From: a virus
Taxonomy: Duplodnaviria > Caudoviricetes
DNA length: 25,672 bases
Strand: one strand, 5' to 3'
IMG/VR virus record: IMGVR_UViG_3300020440_000076
Location: 1-25,672 of that record
Part shown: positions 7,050-23,311 of the stretch, piece after piece
How the letters are laid out: each line of letters begins with the position of its first letter
How positions within the stretch are numbered: position 1 is the stretch's first letter
Translations under genes and position numbers: made by a program
The notes under the pieces: generated by a model
Database searches by the model: none
Told to the model about the DNA's origin: nothing
What the model saw: the letters and a program-made list of their open reading frames with translations, nothing else

Positions 7050-7083
7050 AAAAGGGCGGACTTAATGTTCGCCCTTTTTCTTT
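7050..7083 (+). terminator. Intrinsic terminator after MCP
   Basis: AAAAGGGCGGAC-ttaat-GTTCGCCCTTTT followed by a T-rich tract. Confidence 0.85.
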
Positions 7084-7098
7084 ATAAGGAGAAAACTC

Positions 7099-7218
7099 AT
7101 GTTGAAAAATAAATGGTTATGGGCAGGAATTATTATTGTGATAATTGCCTTAGGATATTGGCAGAAAGATAACATTGTGCCAAAATCTGAAGAACAAAAA
7201 ATAGAACAAGCACAATAG
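7099..7218 (+). CDS. 39-aa single-pass membrane protein (not in ORF track)
   Basis: SD AAGGAGA 6 nt before ATG 7099. MLKNKWLWAGIIIVIIALGYWQKDNIVPKSEEQKIEQAQ* has a basic N-terminus, an aromatic-flanked hydrophobic helix and a polar tail. Confidence 0.7.
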   Translation: MLKNKWLWAGIIIVIIALGYWQKDNIVPKSEEQKIEQAQ

Positions 7219-7231
7219 TTTTTAAAACACC

Positions 7232-7268
7232 AAGGGGGCGGCAATGAAAAACGAGTCGCCCTTTTTTT
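7232..7268 (+). terminator. Intrinsic terminator
   Basis: AAGGGGGCGGC-12 nt loop-GTCGCCCTTTTTTT. Confidence 0.75.
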
Positions 7269-7274
7269 GTGACT

Positions 7275-7280
7275 TAAATA
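7275..7280 (+). promoter_or_regulatory. Late promoter box TAAATA
   Basis: TTAAATA-tcagt-ATG(7286), directly after the terminator. Confidence 0.6.
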
Positions 7281-7285
7281 TCAGT

Positions 7286-7954
7286 ATGAACAAAATATTT
7301 TCTAATGGATGCAGTTTTCTCACTCCTAGACCAAAAGACGGTGTCGATAGTTTTGTAAGCGACATTATTGCAAAAAATTTTAGATATGATCTTGTCAATT
7401 TGGCAATGGGAGGTCGCGGCAATGACCGCATAAGTTTTTCAACCAAGGTATGGTTTGAACAAAATGATTACTCGAATACTTTTGCAATAATAGGGTGGTC
7501 AAGTATGCACAGAAATGACTATGTCACCAACGACGGTTGGAAAAAAGACAGGATACCTCAAACGGATCTGACTTGGAGAACCTGGAAAACTTTGGACAAC
7601 GTTAGTTTTATAAGGCAAAAGTCAGGGTGGGATATTGAAAACAATGCAATAATGAATTTCCTAGATAATGTTTTTGACTTGCAAAATTATTTTGAACGTA
7701 AGAAAATTCCATATGTGATGTACAATGCCTTACCAAACAGTTTCGAGACCGATATTCAAGATTTTAAAGTTATAAAAAATTGTTTGAACATGGAAAGGTT
7801 TTTCAATCCTACAATGAGCCACTATGAATATGTTGTAGATAAAAAACTAATTGTAAGTCCTCAAGATCCACATCCTAGTCTCGAGGGGCATCAACAATGG
7901 GCGATGATGCTACTAGAATTCATAGTAAAAAATCAACTTTTTAAAATTAAGTAG
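7286..7954 (+). CDS. SGNH/GDSL-fold hydrolase or acyltransferase-like protein
   Basis: Block I-like NGCSF near the N-terminus, NLAMGGRGN (block II), IIGWS and C-terminal DPHP (block V). Start moved to ATG 7286 because ATG 7244 lies in the terminator loop. Confidence 0.65.
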   Translation: MNKIFSNGCSFLTPRPKDGVDSFVSDIIAKNFRYDLVNLAMGGRGNDRISFSTKVWFEQNDYSNTFAIIGWSSMHRNDYVTNDGWKKDRIPQTDLTWRTWKTLDNVSFIRQKSGWDIENNAIMNFLDNVFDLQNYFERKKIPYVMYNALPNSFETDIQDFKVIKNCLNMERFFNPTMSHYEYVVDKKLIVSPQDPHPSLEGHQQWAMMLLEFIVKNQLFKIK

Positions 7955-7981: not shown

Positions 7982-7987
7982 TAAATA
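7982..7987 (+). promoter_or_regulatory. Late promoter box TAAATA
   Basis: Intergenic CATAAATAC preceding a structured leader. Confidence 0.65.
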
Positions 7988-7992
7988 CATAC

Positions 7993-8085
7993 AGTTCAAA
8001 CAGAGCCACACAATCAAGTGTGGACTTATGCGGATGTAAACCACCGCGTAGTGAGTAGAACTCACATTAGGCTCTGAACAGGAGA
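7993..8085 (+). ncRNA. Candidate structured cis-regulatory 5' leader RNA (four-way junction), family unknown
   Basis: Helices CAGAGC(C) 8001-8007/GGCTCTG 8070-8076, CCACAC 8006-8011/GTGTGG 8018-8023, TATGCGG 8027-8033/CCGCGTA 8044-8050 and GTGAG 8051-8055/CTCAC 8061-8065. Abuts SD AGGAGA 8080-8085. Confidence 0.6.
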
Positions 8086-8091
8086 AAAAAA

Positions 8092-8526
8092 ATGGGAAGA
8101 CCACTCAAAAAAGGTAGGTTCGGATCAAGTGCAGGTGATATAGAAGTCACTGGTGCATTTTCGAATAACACTACACAACCTGACGGCTCAGGCGCTGAAT
8201 CAGTATCTACAGCATCTGGAAACTTCATAGTGTCTCAAAGAGGAAGTAAAAGATTTAAAGTCAACTTTCTTTCTGCAGACGGTTCAACAAGAAATATTGA
8301 AGTGCTAACTCTTAAAGCAGTAGCACCAGGATCACTTACAAATGGTGAATTCTGTGTTCAAATTATCTTGGACGACTCAACTGTGGCATATGTAGAGAAA
8401 TTCTACAACAACACAGTTCACTATGTAACAGCAGGCGGCAACACTGGACACGTGCCTTACACATTAGGCGGAGAAGGTGATGACGAAGGCAAAGTATCAG
8501 GTAAGGGTTCAATCGACGTAATCTAA
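8092..8526 (+). CDS. Hypothetical virion structural protein (144 aa, beta-rich)
   Basis: Strong SD, own late promoter, codon usage like the structural genes; N-terminus MGRPLKK. Confidence 0.7.
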   Translation: MGRPLKKGRFGSSAGDIEVTGAFSNNTTQPDGSGAESVSTASGNFIVSQRGSKRFKVNFLSADGSTRNIEVLTLKAVAPGSLTNGEFCVQIILDDSTVAYVEKFYNNTVHYVTAGGNTGHVPYTLGGEGDDEGKVSGKGSIDVI

Positions 8527-8545
8527 CCTTAAAACACGTGCTTAT

Positions 8546-8570
8546 ATGGGGGAGTTTTGTACTCCCCCAT
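8546..8570. terminator. Perfect 10-bp GC-rich hairpin (terminator or RNA-stabilising stem)
   Basis: ATGGGGGAGT-tttgt-ACTCCCCCAT; no clear U tract on either side. Confidence 0.55.
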
Positions 8571-8591: not shown

Positions 8592-9437
8592 ATGGCAATA
8601 AAAACTTTAAGAACATCGGGTGATTATCTCATTAAAACAGGCACAGGATCTGGTGGTTCTAACACCATCACTTTTGATTCCAACCTGACTGTTGTAAACG
8701 GAAATTTAGAAATCAAAGGCACACAGTCGGTAATAAATTCAACAACTTTAACAATCGAAGACAGATTTTTAGAGATAAACAGAAACAACTCTACTGCCGG
8801 CACACAAGACTCTGGACTGATGTTCAATCAAGGAACATCCAACAATGCTATCTTGTATTATGACGCAGGAGACAACGAATTCCAACTAGGTACTACCACG
8901 CATGATGCCGCAGTAACCACGGTATCAAACATTACTTTAGGACAGATTAAAATAGCAACAACACCATCTGATAACAACCATGCCGCTTCGAAAAAATATG
9001 TTGATGATTCAGTAACAGGTGGCGGATTCATCTTAAACATTGGTGCTGACGATTCAACTGAAGTCACATATAGCACAGGACAAAAATTACAATTTTTAGG
9101 CGGCTCTAACATTAGCACTGCCATCACAACAGGTGACAATTTAACAATTAGTCTAGGACAGAATTTAACAAATATAGAATCAATATCATCAGCAACATCT
9201 AATGCAAATTTAACTTTAGCATCAAATGGTACAGGTGACGTGGTAATAAATGACACTTTGACGTTCTCTGGCGCGGCATCAACACCAACGGCAGGCTCAG
9301 TAACCAAGATCTATAACAAAACAGCAGGCGGTGGAGGCACTGGCTTGTATTTCAACAACTCAGCAATCAATTCTGGCACAGAAGATGAATTGATAAGTAA
9401 AAAGAAAGCAACGGCATTGGCCATTGCATTAGGATAA
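8592..9437 (+). CDS. Virion fibre/appendage protein (281 aa)
   Basis: T/S/G/N-rich. Module GNLEIKGTQSVINSTTLTIED...DSGLMFNQG, an ASKKYVDD fibre motif and an SNANLTLASNGTGDV module are shared with the other fibre genes. Ends KKKATALAIALG. Confidence 0.7.
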   Translation: MAIKTLRTSGDYLIKTGTGSGGSNTITFDSNLTVVNGNLEIKGTQSVINSTTLTIEDRFLEINRNNSTAGTQDSGLMFNQGTSNNAILYYDAGDNEFQLGTTTHDAAVTTVSNITLGQIKIATTPSDNNHAASKKYVDDSVTGGGFILNIGADDSTEVTYSTGQKLQFLGGSNISTAITTGDNLTISLGQNLTNIESISSATSNANLTLASNGTGDVVINDTLTFSGAASTPTAGSVTKIYNKTAGGGGTGLYFNNSAINSGTEDELISKKKATALAIALG

Positions 9438-16850: not shown

Positions 16851-18986
16851 ATGGCAATAGGACGAATATCAGGACAGATGCTCAAAGCCAATCTTGAGAG
16901 ATCAGGAACGGATTTAGCATTTGAAACGAACCTCTTGGCGTTAGACGTAACGAATTCAAGAGTAGGTATTGGAACTGCTAGTCCGGCCGTAAAACTTCAC
17001 ATCTCTGCAACAGACAGTTTGAGACTTCCTTCGGGAACGACGGCTCAAAGACCTGGTTCACCAGCAAACGGTGACATCAGATACAATTCTACTTTAAGTA
17101 GGATTGAGGGTTACACTGGCGGAGCATATGCAAGTTTGGCGGGCGACGGTATTGACAATATGGTAGAAGATACTACACCCCAACTAGGCGGTAACTTAGA
17201 TATTAACGGATTCGACATTGTATCCGCGAGATCTAATGAAAACATATCAATCACACCAAACGGTACAGGTGAGGTTGTTCTATCAAAAGTAAACATCGGT
17301 GGTGGTGAGATGGATGGCACAATAATTGGTGCTAACTCAGCCGCGGCTGGTACGTTTACAAACTTAACTGCAAATGGTACAATAGACATTGACTCATCTG
17401 GTAACATGGATGGAATCATAATCGGTGCCAACACAGCGGCGGCGGGAACGTTTACAACTGTAACAACTTCCGGCAACGTTGTTGTTGGAGGTAACTTCAC
17501 AGTTAACGGAACAACTACAACGGTTGACAGTGCAACATTAACAGTTGAAGATCCGCTAATTCAATTAGCGAAGAATAACTCAGGTGGAGCGGCGAATGCC
17601 TTTGACCAAGGTCTATTCTTTAACAGAGGATCTTTAGCAAACGTATCATTCTTATGGGACGAGTCAGCAGACGAATTTGTGTTTGCAACTACGGCTTCTG
17701 AGGATGGAACGACAGCAGGTAACGTAACAATCGATTCCTACGCTGACATCCAGGCAAAAGATGCTACATTTAACAAAGTGTCTACACAAGGTGTAGCCAT
17801 TGAGGATAACAAAGTAGTATCATCTAGATCAAATGACAATTTGGTTTTAGATGCGGCTGGTACAGGTGTAGTAGAAGCAATCGGTACGTTCAAGTCAGAC
17901 ACAGTCGACATTAATGGTGGTGCTATTGACAATGCTACGGTTGGTGCAACTACGGCTTCTAGTGGTAAATTTACTACATTAGAAACTAGTAGCACATTAA
18001 AAGTTAAAGCCGACAGTACTAACTTCGCAGTTGGTGCCGGTGATGACTTTACAATCGCACACGATGGTGCAAACACTGCCATTGCTAACGCAACTGGTAA
18101 CTTAACTATAACAACTGCGGCTTCAAGTTCAGTTGTATTCAACGAAGCATCTGCTGATGTTGACTTTAGAGTAGAATCAAACGGTAACACACACGGTTTA
18201 TTCGTAGACGCGGGTAACGACAGAGTTGGTGTAATGACAAGTTCACCAAGTTTTGCGTTAGATGCCTCTGGATCAACTGATGCGTTAAGAGTACCGGTAG
18301 GTAACACTGCTCAAAGACCAACAGCGGCAACTGGTATCATCAGATTCAACTCTCAAACTTCTAAGTATGAGGCTTGTAATGATGGATCAACTTACGTTGA
18401 ATTAGCGATTGCTGGTGACACACCAACAATTTCTAAAGTATCATCAACTGGTGACGGTTCAACAACAACAATCACAGGATTCTTTAGTTCAGCACCTGAA
18501 AATGCTAACAATGTCCTTGTGTTTATTGACAACGTTTACCAAGAACCAACAGAAAACTACACAGTATCAGGAACAAACATTACATTTACTTCTGCTCCAC
18601 ACAGTGGTGCAAGAATATTTGCAATGACTGGTTTTGATAACACTGCACTAGCGACAGGTGGTGTTGCAAGAACTCAAACAAGTTCAGTCTCGTTTGAATC
18701 AACTGCAACTAACATCATGACGTTTAATGCGGCATCTTACAGATCAGCAGAGTTATTGATCACAATAACTGATTCTGCTAACTCAGAATACTCTGTAATG
18801 AAGTCACTGGTTTTACACAACGGTTCAACTGCATTTGGAACAGTGTACGGTGTAACTAACTCAGGATCATCTGATCTTGCTACAATTACATTCAACCACG
18901 ACGGTTCAAGCACAGTCGAAGTAAAAGCAACTAGTACAGGTGGATCTTCATCTGCTAAAGTACAGTACTCTTTACAAGGCGTGTAA
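16851..18986 (+). CDS. Modular virion fibre protein (711 aa)
   Basis: Shared N-terminal module, two P-G-TAQRP...G.IR[YF]N modules, EDTTPQLGGNLD, repeats of MDG.IIGAN.AAAGTFT, VFNEASADVDFRVES and a C-terminal YRSA...HNGSTA domain. Confidence 0.75.
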   Translation: MAIGRISGQMLKANLERSGTDLAFETNLLALDVTNSRVGIGTASPAVKLHISATDSLRLPSGTTAQRPGSPANGDIRYNSTLSRIEGYTGGAYASLAGDGIDNMVEDTTPQLGGNLDINGFDIVSARSNENISITPNGTGEVVLSKVNIGGGEMDGTIIGANSAAAGTFTNLTANGTIDIDSSGNMDGIIIGANTAAAGTFTTVTTSGNVVVGGNFTVNGTTTTVDSATLTVEDPLIQLAKNNSGGAANAFDQGLFFNRGSLANVSFLWDESADEFVFATTASEDGTTAGNVTIDSYADIQAKDATFNKVSTQGVAIEDNKVVSSRSNDNLVLDAAGTGVVEAIGTFKSDTVDINGGAIDNATVGATTASSGKFTTLETSSTLKVKADSTNFAVGAGDDFTIAHDGANTAIANATGNLTITTAASSSVVFNEASADVDFRVESNGNTHGLFVDAGNDRVGVMTSSPSFALDASGSTDALRVPVGNTAQRPTAATGIIRFNSQTSKYEACNDGSTYVELAIAGDTPTISKVSSTGDGSTTTITGFFSSAPENANNVLVFIDNVYQEPTENYTVSGTNITFTSAPHSGARIFAMTGFDNTALATGGVARTQTSSVSFESTATNIMTFNAASYRSAELLITITDSANSEYSVMKSLVLHNGSTAFGTVYGVTNSGSSDLATITFNHDGSSTVEVKATSTGGSSSAKVQYSLQGV

Positions 18987-20219: not shown

Positions 20220-20227
20220 TATAAATA
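20220..20227 (+). promoter_or_regulatory. Perfect T4 late promoter TATAAATA
   Basis: TATAAATA 6 nt before the riboswitch P1 strand. Confidence 0.7.
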
Positions 20228-20233
20228 CTTTTA

Positions 20234-20293
20234 CGTTCATCCACAGGACGGAAGTAGGGCAACCGAAGGAACGCACCAACAGGAGAGGTGCGT
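20234..20293 (+). ncRNA. Glutamine-I riboswitch (glnA RNA motif) with translational expression platform
   Basis: CGTTC-A-TCC-aca-GGA-CGGAAGTA-GG-gcaa-CC-GAAG-GAACG-CACC. P1 is CGTTC 20234-20238/GAACG 20269-20273, with a short P2, E-loop GGAAGTA/GAA and P3 capped by GNRA. Matches the glnA-motif consensus as I recall it. Alternative helix ACGCACC 20271-20277/GGTGCGT 20287-20293. Confidence 0.82.
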
Positions 20294-20525
20294 GAAAAAA
20301 CTTATAAAAGAAAATAGGTACAAATATCTTCACCTAAGGGTATTCAAAGGCGAGGATGATTTTGATTTGGTATTGACATCCTACGACTGGCCATATTTTA
20401 GAGTGCAGTTTAAAAATTTAGACCAGATAGAACTAGATGATTTATACCTATTGTGGCGTAATAGGGCATGGATATTGCAGTGGTTACCACCACAATGGGC
20501 ACACTATCTAGTTATTGGCACATAA
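20292..20525 (+). CDS. Riboswitch-controlled hypothetical protein (77 aa, GTG start)
   Basis: SD AGGAGAGG 20281-20288. The ORF exactly fills the space between the riboswitch and the next TAAATA box; aromatic (Trp/Tyr)-rich, no recognised domain. Confidence 0.7.
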   Translation: MKKLIKENRYKYLHLRVFKGEDDFDLVLTSYDWPYFRVQFKNLDQIELDDLYLLWRNRAWILQWLPPQWAHYLVIGT

Positions 20526-20531
20526 TAAACA

Positions 20532-20537
20532 TAAATA
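20532..20537 (+). promoter_or_regulatory. Late promoter box TAAATA
   Basis: CATAAATAC immediately after the 77-aa ORF. Confidence 0.6.
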
Positions 20538-20538
20538 C

Positions 20539-20599
20539 TGTTACTGCTGTCGGCCGGCAATGATAACGAGGCCGTGTATGGTGTATTGCCGTACTAACA
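20539..20599 (+). ncRNA. Candidate structured 5' leader RNA (three-way junction with loop-loop complementarity), family unknown
   Basis: TGTTA 20539-20543/TAACA 20595-20599, CGGCC 20551-20555/GGCCG 20570-20574 and GTATGG 20576-20581/CCGTAC 20589-20594. CGGCAAT 20555-20561 is complementary to ATTGCCG 20585-20591. Confidence 0.5.
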
Positions 20600-20623
20600 T
20601 TATTATATGAGAGGAACCTAAGT

Positions 20624-23311
20624 ATGGCCATAGGTCGTATATCAGGGTCGGTATTAAAGTCCAATCTGACTAGGAATGGCGTCGACCTTGCATTTGAAAC
20701 AAACCTACTTTATCTTGACGTAACAAACAGTCGTGTGGGTATAGGTATCTCAGAACCAACAACAGCATTACAAGTAAACGGAACAATAACAGCAACAACA
20801 CTTGCTGGTACCTCTATTGCTGGAGGCACTGTAACAGATAATCTTAAATTTAATGACAGTATTGAATTGAGATTGGGTACTGATGCAGACACAAATATTA
20901 AACACACTGGAACTAATCTTAACATCAACGAGACAACCGGCGATATAAACATTAGAACTTATGCTGACAACAAAGACGTAGTCATAGGTTCAGATGATGG
21001 CAGTGGTGGTCTAGCCGATTATCTAAGGGCAGACGGTTCTACTGGTGAGTTAAAATTATATTATTATGGCTCAGAAAAATTAAAAACAATCAATACAGGG
21101 GTGCAAACCACAGGCACAATTAGTGTCAACGGTGCTTACACACTTCCAACAGCAGATGGTAGTGCCAATCAAGTTTTACAAACAGATGGATCTGGAAGTA
21201 TTAGTTTTGGCACTGTGTCTATTGATAGTTTAGCAACAGGTGGCATAACAATAGATGACAATAAGATAACAGGACAAAGGTCAAATGAAAACATTGAAAT
21301 TGGTGCCAGCGGTAGCGGAATAATAGAAACAAGTTCGAGTATTCTTCCAGCAACTGATAATGCAGTTGACCTTGGTTCATCTAGTAAAAGGTTTAAAGAT
21401 ATATATGCATCCTCAGGCACAATTCACGTTGGTGATCAAACAATCAAATCAACAGCGTCTGGATTTGTCTTTTCTGGAGCATTATCAAGCACTGCCAGTA
21501 CCACAATATCAGATGACACCACAGCATCTTTGATACAAAAGACAGGTATAGGTAGTACGGAAGAAAAAACCATAGAATCAAATTCCACTGCACAATATGA
21601 TTCCGCACTGTATTACATAACATCTCGAGACGAAATCAATGATCAAGTGGCGGTACAAAAAGTTTCAGTAATCCATAACAACTCAAACGGATATGCTTCC
21701 ACATCTCACGTGACTAAGACAGGAACCACAACAGGACAAACTTTCAACGGTGATGTATCAGGAGGCTCAGTTAGACTTAGAGCAACTGGACATTCTGCTT
21801 CTAACAGTGTAACTGCATATTCGATACAATTAGGAGATAACAGCAGTGTAGGTACAAGTGGAAATACAGCAATAGTAATCAATTCTGATGTAGACAGCAG
21901 TTCAGAAAGTTTAGATACTTGGGCACACGCATCTTATAGAGGAGCGAAATATTTTATTTCTGTGAATGATGAAGTAGACGATGAATTAGAATCAATAGAA
22001 TGTTTGGTTGTACACGATGGTACAACAGCATACATCACAGACTATAATAGTGTAAGAACAGGAAGCAACAGTTTAATCACACTAACAGCCACCTTAGGTG
22101 GAAGCAATGTCACATTGTCAGGATCGGGTGCTAGGGCAAACCTAAATGTAAAAATGCACAGAATCTTGTTAAGTGATTCCGAGACAGGATTTGAGGCAAC
22201 AAATCAAAAGATTATTCCCGCAACAACAGTTTCTTCGACAGCCACTACAATTGATCAGTTTGACGCTTCAGCGATACATGGTGCTTTCTATTACGTTGTA
22301 GGAACAAGTTCTAATGAAAGCAATGCATCAAGTATTACTGAACTCGCAGTGGCCACTGACGGAACTGATGCTTATATCACAACAGGTCCAATGGTATCTA
22401 CCAAAGGCACAGATCAGTTAACTTTTACTGCTACAATATCAGGAAGTACTGTGACTATACAGGCCTCATCTACCAGCGGGTCTTCGACAACTGTCAATGC
22501 TTACAGAATAAACATGAAAAGGGAGGAAAGTGTCTCAGCCGCAAGTACAGTTAACATTGGTGGTACTCAAACAATTACAGGCGCAAAAACATTCTCTTCA
22601 AATGCTACATTCCAAGGAAGTGTTTTCACAGATGCAATAAAATCAGCGGCATCAAACCAGAGCATCACACTAGATCCAGAAGGCACTGGTACAGTGGATA
22701 TTATTGGCTCACAAACAATTACAAATGTAACAACACAAGATTCACTTACAATAACAACAACAGAAGATTCGAGTACAGCAGGCCCGGTATTTACATTGAA
22801 GAGAAACAGTTCAAGTCCGGCAGATGCGGATTACCTAGGACAGATCAAATTCAAAGGTGAGAATGATGCTGACCAAGAAGTGCTTTATGCAAAAATTACA
22901 GGTAAGATACTAGATGCATCAGATGGTTCTGAAGATGGTATAATAGAGATAGCACACAGGAAGGCAGGATCAAATGTGATCACTGCAAGGTTTAGATCTG
23001 ACTCGTTACAATTATTAAACGATACAAACTTAAGAGTCAGCGGAGTGACAGAACTAGGTGTGCAGACAGGTGATCCATCAACAACTGCCAACTTTGCAAA
23101 AATATATGCCAAGGACGAATCCGCAAGTGCTGAAGTTTATGTTCAAGATGAAGCGGGTAACGTTACTAAGATATCTCCTCACAACGAACAAGGCGAGTGG
23201 GAATACTATTCAAGAAATACAAAAACAGGTAAGACTGTACGTGTCAATATGGAAGAGATGATTAGAGATATTGAAAAACTTACAGGTAAATCCTATATTA
23301 AAAACGACTAA
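20624..23311 (+). CDS. Modular virion fibre protein (895 aa) with three ~113-aa internal repeats
   Basis: Shared N-terminal module; YTLPTADGSANQVLQTDGSG; repeats YDSALYYI/YRGAKYFI/IHGAFYYV...HDGTTAY; SPADADYLGQIKFKGEND; distinct charged C-terminal domain. Confidence 0.75.
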   Translation: MAIGRISGSVLKSNLTRNGVDLAFETNLLYLDVTNSRVGIGISEPTTALQVNGTITATTLAGTSIAGGTVTDNLKFNDSIELRLGTDADTNIKHTGTNLNINETTGDINIRTYADNKDVVIGSDDGSGGLADYLRADGSTGELKLYYYGSEKLKTINTGVQTTGTISVNGAYTLPTADGSANQVLQTDGSGSISFGTVSIDSLATGGITIDDNKITGQRSNENIEIGASGSGIIETSSSILPATDNAVDLGSSSKRFKDIYASSGTIHVGDQTIKSTASGFVFSGALSSTASTTISDDTTASLIQKTGIGSTEEKTIESNSTAQYDSALYYITSRDEINDQVAVQKVSVIHNNSNGYASTSHVTKTGTTTGQTFNGDVSGGSVRLRATGHSASNSVTAYSIQLGDNSSVGTSGNTAIVINSDVDSSSESLDTWAHASYRGAKYFISVNDEVDDELESIECLVVHDGTTAYITDYNSVRTGSNSLITLTATLGGSNVTLSGSGARANLNVKMHRILLSDSETGFEATNQKIIPATTVSSTATTIDQFDASAIHGAFYYVVGTSSNESNASSITELAVATDGTDAYITTGPMVSTKGTDQLTFTATISGSTVTIQASSTSGSSTTVNAYRINMKREESVSAASTVNIGGTQTITGAKTFSSNATFQGSVFTDAIKSAASNQSITLDPEGTGTVDIIGSQTITNVTTQDSLTITTTEDSSTAGPVFTLKRNSSSPADADYLGQIKFKGENDADQEVLYAKITGKILDASDGSEDGIIEIAHRKAGSNVITARFRSDSLQLLNDTNLRVSGVTELGVQTGDPSTTANFAKIYAKDESASAEVYVQDEAGNVTKISPHNEQGEWEYYSRNTKTGKTVRVNMEEMIRDIEKLTGKSYIKND

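Follow-up and report, generated by a model that had tools for sequence, protein, structure and literature searches.

What kind of RNA precedes the gene for a small, probable virion protein in an uncultured tailed phage, and could it control the translation of that gene? The question is raised by a 25,672-nt stretch of viral DNA (positions 1 to 25,672 of IMG/VR record IMGVR_UViG_3300020440_000076, hereafter the window), which covers the head/virion region of a T4-like jumbo phage, with a portal, a protease and a gp23 capsid protein that is 67-71% identical to its counterparts in Phosso, PA5oct, CBB and GAP32. A preliminary description, made from the letters alone, had noticed at 7982-8091 a GC-rich leader that folds into a four-way junction and abuts the ribosome-binding site of a gene encoding a 144-aa protein, here called the MGRP protein (8092-8526). 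All features of this leader and its gene lie on the + strand.

The leader and its Rfam family

Every element on which that description was built (TAAATA, AGTTCA, CAGAGC/GCTCTG, GAACT, TGAAC, the Shine-Dalgarno (SD) sequence and the ATG) proved correctly placed, and the closing helix with three hairpins was confirmed as the minimum free energy fold, at -31.3 kcal/mol and with a z of -5.0, none of 200 shuffled sequences being equally stable. Behind TAAATA (7982-7987), a box resembling a T4-like late promoter, comes AGUUCA (7993-7998), which holds the GU anchor position described below, is the probable start of the transcript and may pair through its GUU with AAC at 8077-8079. A lineage-specific closing helix of the minimum free energy fold, P0, is formed by CAGAGC (8001-8006) and GCTCTG (8071-8076) and encloses three hairpins: P1 (8006-8023; CCACAC/GUGUGG), which shares C8006 with P0; P2 (8026-8050), in which a U and UAUG/CGUA, with a U.G wobble, lie under three upper pairs and a loop at 8034-8043; and P3 (8051-8065; GUGAG/CUCAC with a UAGAA-C loop), which adjoins P2 and contains GAACT (8058-8062). 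The strand that follows, GCUCUGAAC (8071-8079), can be folded either as the 3' arm of P0 or as an anti-SD, in which CUCU (8072-8075) pairs with GGAG (8081-8084) of the SD sequence AGGAGA (8080-8085), ahead of the ATG at 8092. Since TGAAC (8075-8079) overlaps GCTCTG, GUU/AAC is the part of its pairing with the 5' strand that is compatible with the closing helix, as in the centroid structure. The term GC-rich holds in a relative sense, with 48% GC at 8001-8079 against 38.6% for the window; the whole of 7982-8091 is at 41%.

Scanning with Rfam covariance models revealed that the segment 8006-8094 is a member of freshwater-2 (RF02980, type Cis-reg), with a score of 72.2 bits against a gathering cut-off of 49.9 (E 1.8e-09) and a match to the full length of the model (positions 1-84 of 84). 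As judged from the Rfam alignment and the fold, the window displays the traits of this family, that is, three consecutive hairpins, CUUAUGCGG/CCGCGUAG, UUAUG/CGUA and UAGAAC, followed by the SD sequence, which is part of the Rfam consensus, and the AUG. The cis position is satisfied too, the match running into AGGAGA and the ATG. Among 4227 Rfam families searched at gathering cut-offs, RF02980 was the sole match at 7982-8094, and no known aptamer class was detected there. The RNA in the window is thus real and conserved, an additional freshwater-2 member with a lineage-specific four-way junction. The preliminary description had been unable to assign it to a known family, which was wrong, and had called it undescribed while naming an Rfam match as what would remove its novelty; with this match the novelty is gone. 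The RNA itself is already catalogued, and the observation as first written is not new.

The family is larger than its Rfam model. Freshwater-2 lies directly 5' of the gene in 39 of 40 homolog loci scanned (out of 53 found via the downstream protein), and 8 of 20 divergent leaders, in a hand-picked set, score under the cut-off. The consensus as printed in Rfam has neither the closing helix nor the anti-SD and begins about 13 nt past the probable 5' end. The motif reportedly first came from a screen that yielded 224 motifs. The main text of that screen (PMC5737381) does not contain the word "freshwater", and literature searches on the name freshwater-2 and the accession RF02980 returned nothing relevant; the original description of the motif may already hold parts of the pseudoknot and phage-gene findings reported below.

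A conserved core and a loop that may pair with the start codon

Two samples of leaders were compared, one of 121 usable leaders collected by motif and, as a guard against circularity, a second of 105 distinct leaders collected by the first codons of the gene, with a pattern that leaves out the subfamily of the window's MGRP protein. The core consists of U-UAUG-NNN-loop-NNN-CGUA and, directly next to it, a hairpin of 2-5 bp whose loop is (U/G)AGAA-C; it is present in 102 of these 105, one other being degenerate (L273) and two lacking it, and TAAATA precedes it in 101 of the 102. About 14 nt of the core are conserved. In 100 parsed leaders, the U before UAUG is invariant and AGAAC occupies the P3 loop in 90, while the upper pairs of P2 change as pairs (CG84/GC11/UA3/GU2; GC47/AU30/UA23; GC98), two of them covarying strongly. 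P2 and P3 meet without an intervening nucleotide in 187 of 208 cases, the stem pairs of P3 vary freely, and P1, variable and optional in the family, is not stable in 18 of 99 leaders sampled by gene start. A conserved and covarying leader upstream of homologs, as the preliminary description anticipated, was therefore found for P2 and P3 and not for the four-way closing helix. Bases that hardly vary, placed within both a helix and a loop, may mark a binding surface.

At the 5' end, a GU anchor lies 4-7 nt 3' of TAAATA in 118 of 121 leaders. This GU could pair with an internal AC before UUAUG in most leaders, short variants forming small hairpins; the GAC before UUAUG does vary when more leaders are sampled, and the 5' GU may simply mark the start site. 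An upstream reading frame starting at the AUG of UUAUG was considered and rejected, since this AUG can lie in any of the three frames, with stops in some cases and none in others.

The loop of P2 appears to have a partner in the gene itself. In the short class, 91 of 169 leaders allow at least four contiguous pairs between this loop and the AUG-GGN region, where shuffled loops would give 22. We then sought members whose second codon is not GGN and found 214 loci, 106 of them with a full P2 and 70 distinct, all beginning Met-Ala; none of the 44 loci checked with a non-G second codon has a full P2. When the gene begins Met-Ala, CCCA in the loop becomes GCCA: among 345 leaders, the G-type loop is found in 46 of 72 with ATG-GC and in 0 of 273 with ATG-GG (51 of the latter unscored), the C-type being retained in 24 of the 72. 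Of 346 leaders, 138 have loops that end X-Y-C-R, and there X is C for 115 of 115 ATG-GG genes and G for 22 of 23 ATG-GC genes, and in a second pairing register UCC/GGA becomes AGC/GCU in five leaders. On a FastTree phylogeny of the proteins from residue 3 onward, which offers eight independent pairs, an average of 5.5 of the 8 change in the same way and none in the opposite way, a borderline outcome (median p 0.06, range 0.016-0.25). The candidate pseudoknot between the P2 loop and AUG plus codon 2 is thus well supported by compensation across the family, at a level that falls short of formal significance once phylogeny is taken into account. In the window it would be reduced to a 3-bp remnant, CCA (8041-8043) with UGG (8093-8095), and in the GGCTC class 10 of 13 leaders lack this CCA. 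Replacement of the pseudoknot by the anti-SD was considered and dropped: the raw counts (71/114 vs 38/231) favored it, yet the tree pairs (2.1 vs 1.6) gave no support.

Conserved nucleotides joined to a pseudoknot that would mask the start resemble the anatomy of a translational riboswitch, of which SAM-II and preQ1 are examples. A metabolite or ion riboswitch, with the core as aptamer and the pseudoknot or anti-SD as expression platform, is nevertheless quite unlikely in our estimation. The same phage does carry a glutamine riboswitch behind another TAAATA (20232-20277), but the gene concerned here is probably structural, neither metabolic nor for transport, and the core is small and nearly absent from bacterial genomes. 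We hold it similarly doubtful that freshwater-2 is a phage-specific sensor, in which a two-hairpin aptamer would place its loop on the start codon and codon 2, tuning a virion surface protein to the state of the host cell in aquatic jumbo phages, and whose output would have been rebuilt in the window's lineage as a toggle between four-way junction and anti-SD.

The closing helix has a far narrower distribution than the core. Of the 121 leaders, 11 have the CAGAGC/GCUCUG type, without variation and without covariation, and the gene-start sample, whose pattern leaves out the window's protein subfamily, has it in 0 of 105. The four-way junction was consequently rejected as a conserved unit, 53 of the 121 leaders being without a closing strand. 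Another 55 close in a different register, AGUUCAA/UUGGACU or GUCAGAU/AUCGGAC; in the majority long class, the 5' AGUUCA region pairs with a 3' UUGGACU to close a helix of 7 bp. The alternative pairing put forward in the preliminary description, AGUUC of the 5' strand with GAACU of the P3 loop as a switch or pseudoknot, did not hold up. No more than 51 of the 118 anchored leaders can form all 4 bp, and compensating changes on the loop side are never seen, the UGUC class disrupting the GUUC/GAAC pairing with no change in the loop; in the gene-start sample it is possible in 12 of 102 leaders. Formed in the window at the expense of P3, it would be about 9 kcal/mol worse (-19.7 vs -28.7).

An anti-SD is present in all long leader classes. 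In the 55 long GGACU leaders, the SD sequence is predicted to be mostly paired (mean unpaired probability 0.20). Blocking the 5' strand lowers this probability from 0.57 to 0.24 in the window and from 0.79 to 0.27 on average in its class. The anti-SD hairpin of the window is therefore predicted to compete with the closing helix, the SD-closed state lying 2.3 kcal/mol above the open one when core helices only are counted (-26.4 vs -28.7) and 0.2 kcal/mol above it with optional extra pairs. The pairing that would mask the start codon requires no ligand, and the leader might be an attenuator or stabilizer whose fold fixes the translation rate and shields the 5' end of an abundant late mRNA. We regard this as unlikely. 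It agrees with the 42 short leaders, in which the SD sequence stays open (0.77) whether or not the 5' strand is blocked, and with the hairpins that likewise begin other late leaders in the window, but it leaves unexplained why U-UAUG/CGUA and AGAAC are near-invariant beside freely varying pairs, for which internal tertiary contacts are a possible reason.

The MGRP gene, its relatives and its transcripts

As for the downstream gene, neither Pfam nor PHROG has a family for the 144-aa MGRP protein. It is predicted to be all-β (AF2 pLDDT 87), and its model resembles the predicted structures of proteins from Atu_ph07 and fHe-Yen9; a fold search of the PDB gave no clear match, the best (VIA Z 4.7) being to small KOW/SH3-like barrels. 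The MGRP profile gathers 1281 clusters, many with long extensions, and matches PA5oct gp102 (50 bits), Atu_ph07 gp498 and a Phosso protein, at 48-70 bits. The record of PA5oct gp102 bears the note "structural protein, ESI-MS/MS", and the MGRP protein is probably a virion protein of Rak2/PA5oct-like jumbo phages; the earlier suggestion that the leader belongs to a virion-protein gene is supported by this distant homolog. Pfam and fold searches recognized no RNA-binding domain. MGRP proteins are slightly acidic (mean net charge about -1.4), with a basic N-terminal arm (+3 in the first 12 residues). Their IVxQRGxK motif weakly draws ribosomal protein bL27 (PDB sequence E 0.27-1.4), the alignment being confined to the IVxQRG motif (28-30 columns, hhalign 53-58%); bL27 is not among the fold-search matches listed, and the likeness is at the level of a motif, without fold support. 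One homolog of 377 aa (L338, on a 318-kb contig, G045) carries some 250 aa of Thr/Ala/Gly-rich sequence between the N-terminal arm and the remainder of the domain, a layout as expected of an anchor bearing a variable surface insert.

The leader and this gene family are closely linked. A relaxed pattern returned 118 distinct matches, 113 of which look real and precede MGRP-like starts; the remaining five are without TAAATA and look like chance. Nine large viral contigs, including a 91%-complete one of 318 kb, hold one real copy each, and one contig has a second copy, heading a related gene 1.7 kb away (L367/L368). That a contig has one copy, and that this copy goes with one gene family, agrees with feedback by the gene product. 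The exceptions are 5 of the 70 distinct Met-Ala leaders, which precede apparently unrelated genes; the MGRP gene lies further downstream in both contigs checked. In these two (L484 and L485), an inserted non-MGRP gene stands behind the leader (MATKK... and MAHTRK..., alike at the N-terminus), and the MGRP gene follows about 2.1 kb and 0.5 kb downstream, respectively. Leaders that can head other genes would also suit an operator for a different trans factor (a host protein, the capsid protein or some other assembly partner, or a different late phage protein) acting on the same start-masking fold, for which the structural evidence is identical, and at strict cut-offs at least 37 of 168 loci have the end of the major capsid gene no more than 250 nt upstream. 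We consider this reading unlikely as well, for a single copy per contig and a single gene family favor feedback over a regulon.

A strict pattern run on 185,579 prokaryote genomes produced five matches, one due to chance and four corresponding to TAAATA-leader-MGRP cassettes in contigs of metagenome-assembled genomes. These four (L301-L304), in assemblies titled Pelagibacter, Rickettsiales and Neomarinimicrobiota, are probably binned phage contigs and give no host assignment; the L302 leader is identical to that of the window. In PA5oct, Atu_ph07 and Phosso, the homologous genes have TAAATA and a short plain leader with no freshwater-2 RNA upstream, no real core was found in the genomes of PA5oct and Atu_ph07, and a blastn search for a cultured phage carrying the RNA returned nothing meaningful. 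Because these three cultured homologs have plain leaders, it is the uncultured clade that has added the RNA. For the same reason, the conserved MGRP residues, kept in all three phages, are not explained by RNA binding.

TAAATA lies 5' of 10 of 23 window genes checked, and a promoter function for it may be inferred; an ATAAATA late-promoter motif has been predicted ahead of structural genes in the Rak2-like phage CBB (PMC5259590). Between the terminator of the capsid gene and the leader lies a 236-aa gene of no known family (7244-7954, +), which occupies this place in two of the 168 loci only (L001 and L002). The glutamine (glnA) riboswitch mentioned above (RF01739; 20232-20277, +; 50 bits vs a cut-off of 35) starts 4 nt past a TAAATA (20222-20227) and precedes a 77-aa ORF of no known family (20292-20525); it is a metabolite riboswitch on a probable late phage promoter. 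A further TAAATA leader, 92 nt long (20532-20623, +), with predicted hairpins of -17 kcal/mol and no Rfam match at gathering cut-offs, stands before the MAIGRISG protein at 20624. Three long virion-type ORFs, at 16851, 20624 and 11149, have in common the N-terminal module MAIGRISG/MAIQRIPG...DLAFETNLL, and a separate TAAATA precedes each.

The stretch is contained in 17 seawater RNA runs, of which seven were examined. In these seven metatranscriptomes, the leader and gene are covered, by a single piece in six, with RNA contigs starting at 8005-8008, some 13-16 nt downstream of the predicted start, and ending at 8539-8541 in five runs and at 8642 in two, one of which is the run with two pieces. 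Most ends fall near a strong hairpin (8546-8570; -18.3 kcal/mol), the probable 3' end of the transcript, which the terminator scan missed because it has no U-run. Run X18, of unrecorded kind, spans the region. The lack of RNA cover at 7070-7700 is uninformative because the runs were chosen with this gene. All this is a weak hint at a single leader-plus-gene transcript, as the RNA runs may come from one campaign. The starts inside the leader might instead betray an independent small RNA or a self-cleaving ribozyme merely upstream of the gene, and NGUC together with AGAA recalls the hairpin ribozyme. We judge this highly improbable, since no second Rfam family was matched at gathering cut-offs, the location of AGAA within the P3 loop means that hairpin-ribozyme helices cannot form, the P2 loop covaries with the gene's own codon 2, and the contigs continue into the gene with starts spread over 4 nt.

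A possible operator for a virion-protein gene

Our preferred reading, which we advance tentatively and at somewhat less than an even chance, is that the leader is a translational operator likely to be bound by the unassembled product of its own gene. Excess MGRP protein would bind the two-hairpin core and hold the ribosome entry site shut. In most members, as covariation leads us to suppose, the P2 loop would fold onto AUG and codon 2 and block initiation; in the window's lineage, folding predicts that 8071-8079 would toggle between the closing helix, which leaves the SD sequence free, and the anti-SD hairpin, which hides it. Masking of the initiation region, computed here as loop/AUG compensation in the family and as an anti-SD in the window, is a trait of autogenous operators, and so is dedication to one gene family, the five Met-Ala exceptions aside. 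These exceptions also speak against autoregulation, as does a protein that has no recognized RNA-binding domain, is slightly acidic, has no clear fold match in the PDB and retains its conserved residues in phages that lack the RNA. The preliminary proposal of an undescribed riboswitch or autoregulatory leader thus survives as a cis leader of a probable virion-protein gene with elements able to hide the start, and fails on "undescribed".

Known systems offer partial parallels. Pseudoknots are the means by which T4 gp32 and E. coli S15 repress the mRNAs that encode them (PMC3014915, PMC3985624). The leaders of T4 gene 32 and E. coli rpsO resemble the one described here in having a structured pseudoknot, serving one gene and being placed to block initiation, and feedback by excess product is the proposed common logic. 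In contrast, there is no sequence or structural homology, gp32 and S15 are known nucleic-acid binders, and the gene 32 pseudoknot lies 67 nt upstream of the start codon (PMC3014915), whereas the pairing here would include the AUG. The SD-sequestering hairpins of T4 e and I-TevI are similar in that the ribosome site is hidden and a late promoter lies just upstream (PMC3014915). As that review presents them, their late promoter is within the 5' arm of the hairpin, so that late transcripts escape (PMC3014915), a timing mechanism that is inapplicable here because the whole structure lies 3' of TAAATA. The same review, from 2010, describes gene 32 as possibly the sole viral pseudoknot in translational autoregulation (PMC3014915).

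The value of these findings lies at the level of the family. An orphan Rfam motif gains a setting, as a late leader in aquatic jumbo phages of the Rak2/PA5oct type, where it precedes a probable virion-protein gene, together with a minimal core and a start-codon pseudoknot supported by covariation, and a motif of unknown function becomes a directly testable operator model. If the MGRP protein is indeed the repressor, a structural protein of a DNA phage would be gauging its own surplus via an RNA operator.
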